64,000 nucleotides of DNA from Escherichia coli (GTDB lineage: Bacteria; Pseudomonadota; Gammaproteobacteria; Enterobacterales; Enterobacteriaceae): assembly GCF_030013595.1 (NCBI RefSeq), contig NZ_CP122768.1. One strand, written 5' to 3'. Under the pieces are notes generated by a model. It was not told where the DNA came from. It saw nothing but the letters and a program-made list of their open reading frames with translations, and did not search any database. Each line of letters starts with the position of its first letter. Within the stretch, counting starts at the first letter, position 1. The position numbers and the translations under genes were made by a program. Shown piece by piece: positions 38,374 through 38,967 of this stretch.

Positions 38374-38967
38374 TTGCAAAAGACTTTTCATATGCAGCGT
38401 CGAGAAATAAAGAAAATTACTTATTTAATCACTTTGATTTTAACTACTCTTTTGTTTGTTTATTTTTTAAGAACACCCACCACAATCAATATGAAACAGG
38501 CGCATAAAATAAATCAACAACACCAGACAATTTTCCTTATCCGTCACGGTGAACGATGTGACAGAAGCAAAAATGCATGTCTCTCAAGCAATAAAGGAAT
38601 TACCGTCAATGGTGCCATTAAAGCTCATGATTATGGAAAAATATTTAGCAATACTTTCCCGTCATTCAGCCTTTACTCCACGGATACCATACGGACAATG
38701 CAGACAGCCTGTTTTTTCTCTGGAGGAAAAGCAGCCTCCCGGATACCGTTGGCTGCAACATGCGGACTTGATGCTGCAAAGGACATACTCAAATTGTCAT
38801 CCGATAATAAAACTACCGTTATATTCACCCATAATCATTGCCTGACACAAATAGCAAAAAAAATGAAATGGTGGAAGTTAAAGCCAGAATATCTTGAAAC
38901 ACTGGTTCTTCATATCGAAAACAATCGTCTCATTCTTGACGGAAAACTGACTCACGATAAAGCGTAA
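38374..38967 (+). CDS. exported histidine-phosphatase-superfamily protein (SixA/PGM-like), moron
   Basis: N-terminal hydrophobic segment (ITYLITLILTTLLFVYFL), LIRHGER motif, later VIFTHNH; opposite strand to flanking late genes; AT-rich. Confidence 0.55.
   Translation: MQKTFHMQRREIKKITYLITLILTTLLFVYFLRTPTTINMKQAHKINQQHQTIFLIRHGERCDRSKNACLSSNKGITVNGAIKAHDYGKIFSNTFPSFSLYSTDTIRTMQTACFFSGGKAASRIPLAATCGLDAAKDILKLSSDNKTTVIFTHNHCLTQIAKKMKWWKLKPEYLETLVLHIENNRLILDGKLTHDKA

Follow-up and report, generated by a model that had tools for sequence, protein, structure and literature searches.

What is an AT-rich gene for a histidine-phosphatase-like protein doing between the packaging and lysis genes of a lambdoid prophage, on the strand opposite to them? 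The question is raised by a 64,000-nt stretch of Escherichia coli DNA (contig NZ_CP122768.1 of assembly GCF_030013595.1; the window hereafter, meaning the whole stretch that was analysed), in which such a prophage is inserted in the chromosome between prfC and yjjG/leuVPQ. A first-pass annotation had read the open reading frame (ORF) at 38374..38967 as an exported moron, a piece of prophage cargo that could serve as a lysogenic-conversion factor. We followed up this annotation computationally. The assignment can now be refined to the Ais/PmrG family, and a conserved PmrA/BasR box upstream of the gene can be added to it. On balance, we think it probable that the gene is a moron activated by the host regulator BasR, and that its product is anchored in the inner membrane and dephosphorylates the core of lipopolysaccharide (LPS).

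Family, fold and predicted topology of the protein

The ORF at 38374..38967 on the plus strand was confirmed, and it is the sole substantial plus-strand ORF around this spot. The TTG at 38374 that had been proposed as its start was rejected, since the ATG at 38392 is used by RefSeq and is common to the homologues. This ATG corresponds to the RefSeq start of the near-identical ETEC4073 gene (WP_001189672.1, 191 residues), and it is conserved as the start across seven aligned upstream regions.

The protein matched the NCBIfam model NF011945, which covers Ais-type LPS core heptose(II)-phosphate phosphatases, with 205.4 bits (cut-off 142, E = 6.6e-61). A search with the Pfam hidden Markov model (HMM) His_Phos_1, put forward in the first-pass annotation as a check on its superfamily assignment, gave a marginal match to the N-terminal third only (22.8 bits against a gathering threshold of 21.7). 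The protein is 38% identical to Ais of strain K-12 and retains all family-conserved residues. In an alignment of 74 family sequences R51, H52, C56, and G69 are invariant, while E54, R55, D57, S59, C63, R101, Q104, C124, T146, H147, C150, and Y167 are at least 90% conserved. The LIRHGER and THNH motifs noticed earlier are present at residues 49-55 (RHG at nt 38542-38550) and 146-149 (nt 38827-38838), and H147-N148-H149-C150 is invariant across the Ais, TraG, and prophage alleles. Among 1.8 billion cluster representatives, searched exhaustively, just 117 clusters proved to be related.

Structure prediction with AlphaFold (AF2) gave a confident model (predicted local distance difference test, pLDDT, 95.2; predicted template modelling score 0.88), in which residues 2-26 make up one helix and residues 45-186 fold into an alpha/beta domain. 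When the model was compared with the PDB using Foldseek, all 50 matches listed were histidine-phosphatase-fold proteins, with E values down to 1e-7. SixA was the best geometric match (template modelling score 0.71 normalised to the target, root-mean-square deviation 3.4 Å). A single-sequence search of the protein against the PDB found nothing, and the family profile searched against PDB sequences matched Fru-2,6-bisphosphatase, Sts, and PGAM5 (E = 1.6e-6). PHROGs and the anti-phage defence models of PADLOC gave no match at E <= 0.01. The superfamily proposed earlier is thus borne out by two HMMs, the profile search, and the fold, and membership of the histidine phosphatase/Ais family is solid. 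In the Prokaryotic Genome Annotation Pipeline the protein already bears the name of an LPS core heptose(II)-phosphate phosphatase. Nor are its family, the regulon, or the moron concept new.

Export was judged by rules of thumb: hydropathy, N-terminal charge, an AXA-type cleavage site, and cysteines. Residues 9-26 are a run of 18 uncharged residues with a mean Kyte-Doolittle value of 2.26, preceded by an N-terminus in which four residues are basic and one is acidic. This is the N-terminal hydrophobic segment of the first-pass annotation, and it falls within the predicted helix. It is followed by a conserved R-T-P and by no AXA-type site. None of the prophage clade has such a site, whereas Ais (THA|AWS) and TraG of IncI1 plasmids (TKA|KSS) have one, and therefore an uncleaved signal anchor is likelier than a secreted protein. 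The four cysteines are conserved, consistent with an oxidising compartment. Of the earlier proposal that the product is periplasmic or secreted, export has some support from these rules, and secretion is the less likely form. From its sequence, the protein is predicted to be anchored N-in/C-out by its signal segment, with the catalytic domain in the periplasm.

A conserved PmrA/BasR-like box upstream of the gene

Verified PmrA boxes of Salmonella have the form CTTAAG-N5-xTTAAT (PMC3973317), and a direct repeat of this kind lies upstream of the phosphatase gene, followed by a -10-like hexamer (Tables 1 and 2). A scan for the sigma-70 consensus found no complete promoter for the gene and no match to a -35 element. 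This is expected, because the promoter would be activator-dependent. The argument for a promoter therefore rests on the activator box and on its comparative conservation. A stricter BasR-box pattern matches nowhere in the window except at this box, with 0.01 matches expected. Shuffling the dinucleotides of the 150 nt upstream produced a box with both TTAA-K cores intact in 0.6% of cases, and in 0.1% at -75 to -60. Taken alone the box is weak evidence, and its weight comes from conserved position and geometry.

In at least five diverged upstream variants, whose sequences otherwise barely align, the box keeps its distance from the start codon (-64 to -71). It was found in all 19 IMG/VR viral contigs with enough upstream sequence and in five other loci, followed by 10 nt and an A/T-rich -10-like hexamer. 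Across the boxes of the homologues the spacer sequence varies and the half-sites are kept. The operon-embedded TraG copies and the fimbria-linked copies had no PmrA box in the upstream comparison. The spacing in the window is the same as in K-12 eptA, pmrR, and arnB, which are genes of the BasR regulon. From its sequence, the promoter looks like a host promoter controlled by BasR/PmrA.

Table 2. Boxes and -10-like hexamers upstream of prophage alleles (L numbers denote loci) and of K-12 genes.
Source	Box	Position of box	-10-like hexamer
Window	GTTAAG-ATTTT-CTTAAT		TATATT
L005	GTTAAG-ATTTC-CTTAAT		none assigned
L016, L017	CTTAAG-G(T/A)GCA-TTTAAG		TATAAT
L023	CTTAAG-GATTC-CTTAAG		AATAAT
L009, GER2, L025-L039	CTTAAG-GAT(T/C)A-CATAAG		AATAAT
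K-12 eptA	CTTAAG-GTTGG-CTTAAT	-63	10-12 nt downstream
K-12 pmrR	CTTAAG-GTTCA-CTTAAT	-64	CATACT, after 10 nt
K-12 arnB	CTTAAG-GTTAA-GTTAAT		TAAAAT, after 10 nt

A second site resembling a PmrA box, CTTAATACGTGATTAAT, is partly palindromic and lies at 40294-40310 (+/-) in the intergenic region between the holins and a tRNA-Gly gene, with no obvious downstream ORF. It may be due to chance.

A cargo slot between cos and the lysis genes

Morons are recognised by a base composition unlike that of their neighbours and by presence or absence among related phages (PMC3594210), and also by a promoter and terminator of their own that allow expression from a repressed prophage. The phosphatase gene differs from its surroundings in base composition: its GC content is 37.7%, compared with 54.3% in the late region and 56.1% in the lysis genes, and it lies opposite to the late genes. 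Across the island of about 830 bp that contains it, GC falls to 30-43% against 54-56% in the flanks. Homology of the left flank to thousands of E. coli prophages ends at 38175, and that of the right flank resumes at about 39002-39049. The same slot holds unrelated small ORFs in strains A19 and STEC316, which share the lysis module, and in MB30, which shares the terminase module, so the gene is also variably present among related prophages. A terminator-like hairpin follows the gene; its stem (39002-39029) folds at -19 kcal/mol (z = -2.7), and the U-tract is on the plus strand only. Together with the promoter-like element, these observations support the moron call of the first-pass annotation, and we regard the gene as a self-contained cargo cassette.

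Table 1. Features of the phosphatase locus and its neighbours in the window.
Feature	Position	Strand	Basis and remarks
Ais/PmrG-family histidine phosphatase, coding sequence	38392..38967	+	191 residues plus stop; NF011945 match, RefSeq start
PmrA/BasR-box-like direct repeat GTTAAG-ATTTT-CTTAAT	38323..38339	+	one mismatch to the published box
-10-like hexamer TATATT	38350..38355	+	read from the sequence, 10 nt downstream of the box
Hydrophobic signal-anchor or transmembrane helix, residues 9-26, ITYLITLILTTLLFVYFL	38416..38469	+	hydropathy, AlphaFold helix
RHGERCDRS motif	38542..38568	+	R51, H52 (predicted phospho-acceptor), E54, R55, C56; family alignment
THNHC motif	38827..38841	+	T146, H147 (second conserved active-site histidine), C150; family alignment
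Hairpin AACCCCG..CGGGGUU, then UUUUGUAUU	39002..39036	+	between the convergent phosphatase and endolysin genes; RNA fold
Low-GC cargo island (moron) between cos/small-terminase and lysis modules	38176..39001	.	homology breakpoints, GC
cos region	about 38128-38150		between small terminase and phosphatase gene
Large terminase	35363-37465	-	ORF call and RefSeq annotation; intact, 700 residues
Small terminase-like DUF1441 protein	37465..37959	-	left flank; RefSeq annotation
M15 endolysin	39039..39422	-	right flank, late operon; RefSeq, Pfam Peptidase_M15_4 in homologous loci
Two holins	39419-40076	-	ORF calls and RefSeq annotation

The records of phages cdtI, Tritos, and mEp460_4F5 start at points that map to 38145-38150 in the window, and therefore cos lies just to the left of the phosphatase gene. 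The order on the late strand is Q, cargo, holins, endolysin, the antisense phosphatase gene, cos, and terminase. The same slot is occupied, also in antisense, by alleles of 85, 63, 60, and 56% identity (reported range of slot homologues 55-85% at the amino-acid level) in prophages that differ in their packaging and lysis modules. The packaging modules are Terminase_2 with ParB/TAGT in L005, HNH with Terminase_4/TerL in L016, and Nu1/GpA in L007, L009, and L017. Short-tailed phages of the Shiga toxin (Stx) type carry an allele as well, namely the Stx1 phage GER2 and an O104:H4 prophage. Of 5426 complete E. coli genomes, 28-29 carry the allele of the window, and most of these are porcine enterotoxigenic E. 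coli (ETEC); the GER2-type allele was found in 43 genomes. One of 50,697 phage records, that of GER2, encodes a homologue. The L016 allele (3225-3800) is a mosaic: it is 63% identical to the window protein overall, yet it ends in ~45 residues shared exactly with the L005 allele (6001-6576), which suggests recombination within the gene family.

Could the gene be inert cargo, silent in the lysogen or decaying and without effect on the host? The window allele is rare and has a weak Shine-Dalgarno sequence, and some copies are frameshifted or partial (that of UMNF18 and many truncated cluster members). However, the ratio of nonsynonymous to synonymous substitution rates (dN/dS) between alleles is 0.12-0.37 with synonymous sites saturated, and the alleles are under purifying selection. 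The catalytic residues show no variation, the promoter motif has been kept, and unrelated prophage modules have repeatedly captured the gene in the same slot. Because of this selection and repeated capture, we consider inert cargo very improbable.

Members of the family also occur outside prophages. Homologues were found by tblastn on 1439 plasmids. TraG copies lie between TraF and TraH/DotD on IncI1-type plasmid contigs (L011-L013). One member (L014, 6001-6585) follows a chaperone-usher fimbrial operon plus an EAL gene, and another (L002, 5899-6513) is flanked by insertion sequence elements near AIDA-I on an IncF plasmid. Given the mobile copies of the TraG/AfrS type, the family has therefore been recruited repeatedly by mobile elements.

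A second low-GC cargo region lies between Q and the holins. It contains a gene for an AraC-family regulator at 41027-41878 (-) and the tRNA-Gly gene at 40535-40609 (-); a scan of 37000-42500 with Rfam found this tRNA-Gly only. The regulator matches YdeO best, but with 143 bits it stays far short of the cut-off of 348; GadX and HilD come next.

These surroundings bear on a different role, like that of AfrS. Together with an AraC-type regulator, the protein would then be needed for the expression or assembly of a fimbria or adhesin, either as a co-activator or through a change in the envelope. Reportedly, afrR and afrS are both needed for expression of the AF/R1 pilus. The frameshifted UMNF18 copy bears the legacy name 'transcriptional activator AfrS', family members stand downstream of the chaperone-usher operon and beside AIDA-I, the AraC-family gene is 2 kb away in the window, and the carriers are mostly porcine ETEC. 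However, the protein has the fold of a membrane-anchored periplasmic enzyme with intact catalytic residues, not that of a DNA-binding activator, and the window contains no fimbrial operon or fimbrial genes. Moreover, the AraC gene is YdeO/GadX-like, and a related gene occupies the same slot in a prophage of E. coli A19 that has no phosphatase. It was not called in the other phosphatase-carrying prophage loci that were read, although in L005 the interval between the holins and Q has no called genes, so it is possible there. An AfrS-like role is improbable, in our view. For these reasons a functional linkage between the phosphatase and the nearby AraC-family gene was rejected.

The UMNF18 allele (P0011) is frameshifted after residue ~107. 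Since the fold is that of a periplasmic histidine phosphatase, the label of transcriptional activator AfrS is probably a misnomer for a periplasmic enzyme; the name comes from a single annotation.

Several further observations concern the prophage as a whole. Its lysis cassette (39039-40076) is made up of two genes of the holin family and one for an M15 peptidase. No spanin of the Rz/Rz1 type is annotated between the endolysin and cos (38968-39038), and the same holds for the L005 and L016 prophages. The ETEC4073 prophage is otherwise near-identical, but its large terminase (L001, 17423-19366) is a truncated pseudogene and most of its head and tail genes are missing. Because the terminase ORF is intact in the window, the window prophage is the more complete copy. 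Its integrase end abuts yjjG (window ~55983-58268). According to a review, an Stx2k prophage uses the same insertion site as the window prophage (PMC8065619), and in STEC316 Stx2k adjoins the same holin/M15 lysis module.

Proposed function and relation to known systems

The proposed mechanism is as follows. In a lysogen the late operon would be silent, but the phosphatase gene would have its own promoter, made up of the box, 10 nt, and the -10 hexamer without a -35 element. Judging from the conserved motif, phosphorylated host BasR, whose signals are Fe3+, Al3+, and mild acid, would switch the gene on together with host arn, eptA, and ais. The catalytic domain (residues ~45-186) would be held at the periplasmic face of the inner membrane by its probably uncleaved anchor. 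As family membership suggests, H52 of the RHG motif would attack a phosphomonoester in the inner core of LPS; the likeliest target is the heptose(II) phosphate that WaaY adds. R51, R55/R101, and H147 would complete the active site. Loss of this phosphate would lower the negative charge of the outer membrane, and the lysogen could benefit as a conditional phenocopy of a waaY mutant. The prophage thus probably changes the cell-surface charge on a host signal, and we infer that the gene acts as a lysogenic-conversion factor.

Published work on related genes is in part consistent with this mechanism. According to a passage in PMC8129183, which cites Nishino 2006, heptose II of the LPS core is dephosphorylated by PmrG. 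In extraintestinal pathogenic E. coli exposed to serum, ais falls together with arn, basRS, ugd, and eptA (PMC4145685). Loss of waaY in Salmonella improved survival with LL-37 and other cationic peptides by 2-4 logs, at a fitness cost of ~1% (PMC3720879). Several E. coli phages are unable to infect waaY mutants and need the WaaY-dependent heptose phosphate (bioRxiv 10.1101/2024.11.29.626071).

Other observations weigh against a BasR-activated phosphatase of the LPS core. The first half-site of the box in the window begins with G instead of C, and the L007 allele has a degenerate half-site in its box. The loose pattern YTTAAK-N5-YTTAAK with one mismatch allowed was found five times in the whole window against 3.6 expected, which is no enrichment. 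The hairpin was not called by a simple terminator scan; it is common to the lysis module of prophages without the moron, and therefore it is not exclusive to the moron. The protein scored 111.7 bits on the PmrG equivalog model NF052369 and missed its cut-off of 170. This miss says little, because K-12 Ais, which scores 391.9 bits on NF011945, also falls below the cut-off of NF052369 with 145.8 bits, and the model does not separate Ais-type proteins. With only 38% identity to Ais and about half of its score on NF011945 (205 vs 392 bits), the prophage protein may have a different substrate. Biochemical evidence for the family comes only from Salmonella PmrG, and E. coli Ais itself is labelled 'putative'. 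In a PmrA-constitutive E. coli strain, deletion of pmrG left polymyxin resistance unchanged (PMC8129183). Finally, the host already has ais, and the added value of a second copy is unexplained.

The main rival follows from this divergence. The protein would have the same fold and periplasmic location, and probably the same control by BasR, but its target would be an envelope phosphate other than that of heptose(II). This could be heptose(I) phosphate, the lipid A 1-diphosphate, or a phosphorylated periplasmic or exported protein or metabolite. Besides the distance from Ais and the presence of ais in the host, the distinct N-terminus of the prophage clade favours this rival, in that an anchor with a conserved RTP hinge replaces a cleavable signal peptide. 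The minimal histidine-phosphatase fold is also diverse: SixA acts on phosphohistidine, and PhoE or RosC act on small molecules. However, the protein retains every residue that does not vary between Ais, IncI1 TraG, and the prophage alleles, those of the RCDRS loop and of THNHC among them, and the conserved PmrA box would place the gene in an LPS-modification regulon. We consider another periplasmic phospho-substrate unlikely on the present comparison, and continue to favour heptose(II) phosphate. The wider proposal is that lambdoid and Stx-type prophages carry a cargo family that is wired into the BasS/BasR (PmrAB) regulon through the PmrA box and strips inner-core phosphate from LPS on a metal or acid signal. 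We put it forward tentatively, as possible rather than probable.

We found no study of prophage-borne Ais/PmrG homologues in the literature searched, which covered subscription journals poorly and is hence weak evidence of novelty. With the same coverage, no description was found of Ais-like genes that recur in the slot of lambda bor in lambdoid and Stx-type prophages with a conserved PmrA box.

Carriers of the family include porcine ETEC, the O104:H4 lineage, and Stx-type phages, and prophage cargo shapes the virulence and phage sensitivity of E. coli pathotypes. If the mechanism is true, it would be a simple, testable example of a prophage gene under a host two-component system rather than under phage control, and of lysogenic conversion aimed at the LPS core and not at the O-antigen. 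The lysogen would conditionally resemble a waaY mutant: it would better tolerate cationic host-defence peptides and would resist phages that depend on phosphorylated heptose. The allele of the O104:H4 and Stx-type prophages would tie the mechanism to pathogen fitness. Tolerance of antimicrobial peptides and metals might shift, as might the host range of therapeutic phages that read the heptose phosphate. The hypothesis is cheap to test, and it bears on surface charge and phage sensitivity in ETEC lineages and in those of Shiga toxin-producing E. coli (STEC).

The closest known relatives are E. coli Ais and Salmonella PmrG. They share with the prophage protein the NF011945 family, the length class, RHGERCDRS, THNHC, the four cysteines, and a predicted N-terminal hydrophobic export segment, and the upstream PmrA/BasR box resembles the boxes of the ais/pmrG regulon. 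The differences are that the prophage gene sits in a cargo slot, whereas K-12 ais adjoins arnB and is divergent from it, and that the prophage N-terminus, in contrast to that of Ais with its AXA-type site, has the look of an uncleaved anchor. SixA (PDB 1UJB) has the same minimal histidine-phosphatase core of ~155 residues. It is only 12% identical, cytoplasmic, without cysteine pairs, and acts on a different substrate. TraG of the IncI1 tra region (R64/pESBL) and, putatively, AfrS of the AF/R1 pilus locus are Ais-like copies on mobile elements (P0032, 40% identity). Unlike the prophage gene, TraG is embedded in the tra operon and has no PmrA box, and its signal peptide looks cleavable. A transposon sequencing study found that pESBL transfer does not need TraG (PMC4288162).

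Among prophage genes, lambda bor, a moron for a serum-resistance lipoprotein, occupies the same slot after the lysis genes and before cos. It is likewise antisense to the late operon and stand-alone, with an envelope-directed product. However, Bor is an unrelated outer-membrane lipoprotein and not an enzyme, and the material compared contained no link of bor to a box of a two-component system. The gtrABC and oac genes of the P22, SfV/Sf6, and epsilon15 types also encode prophage LPS enzymes. They act on the periplasmic side, alter the surface of the lysogen, and can block superinfection. They add glucose or acetyl groups to the O-antigen and adjoin att/int, whereas the prophage phosphatase, encoded at the cos end, would remove a phosphate from the inner core.

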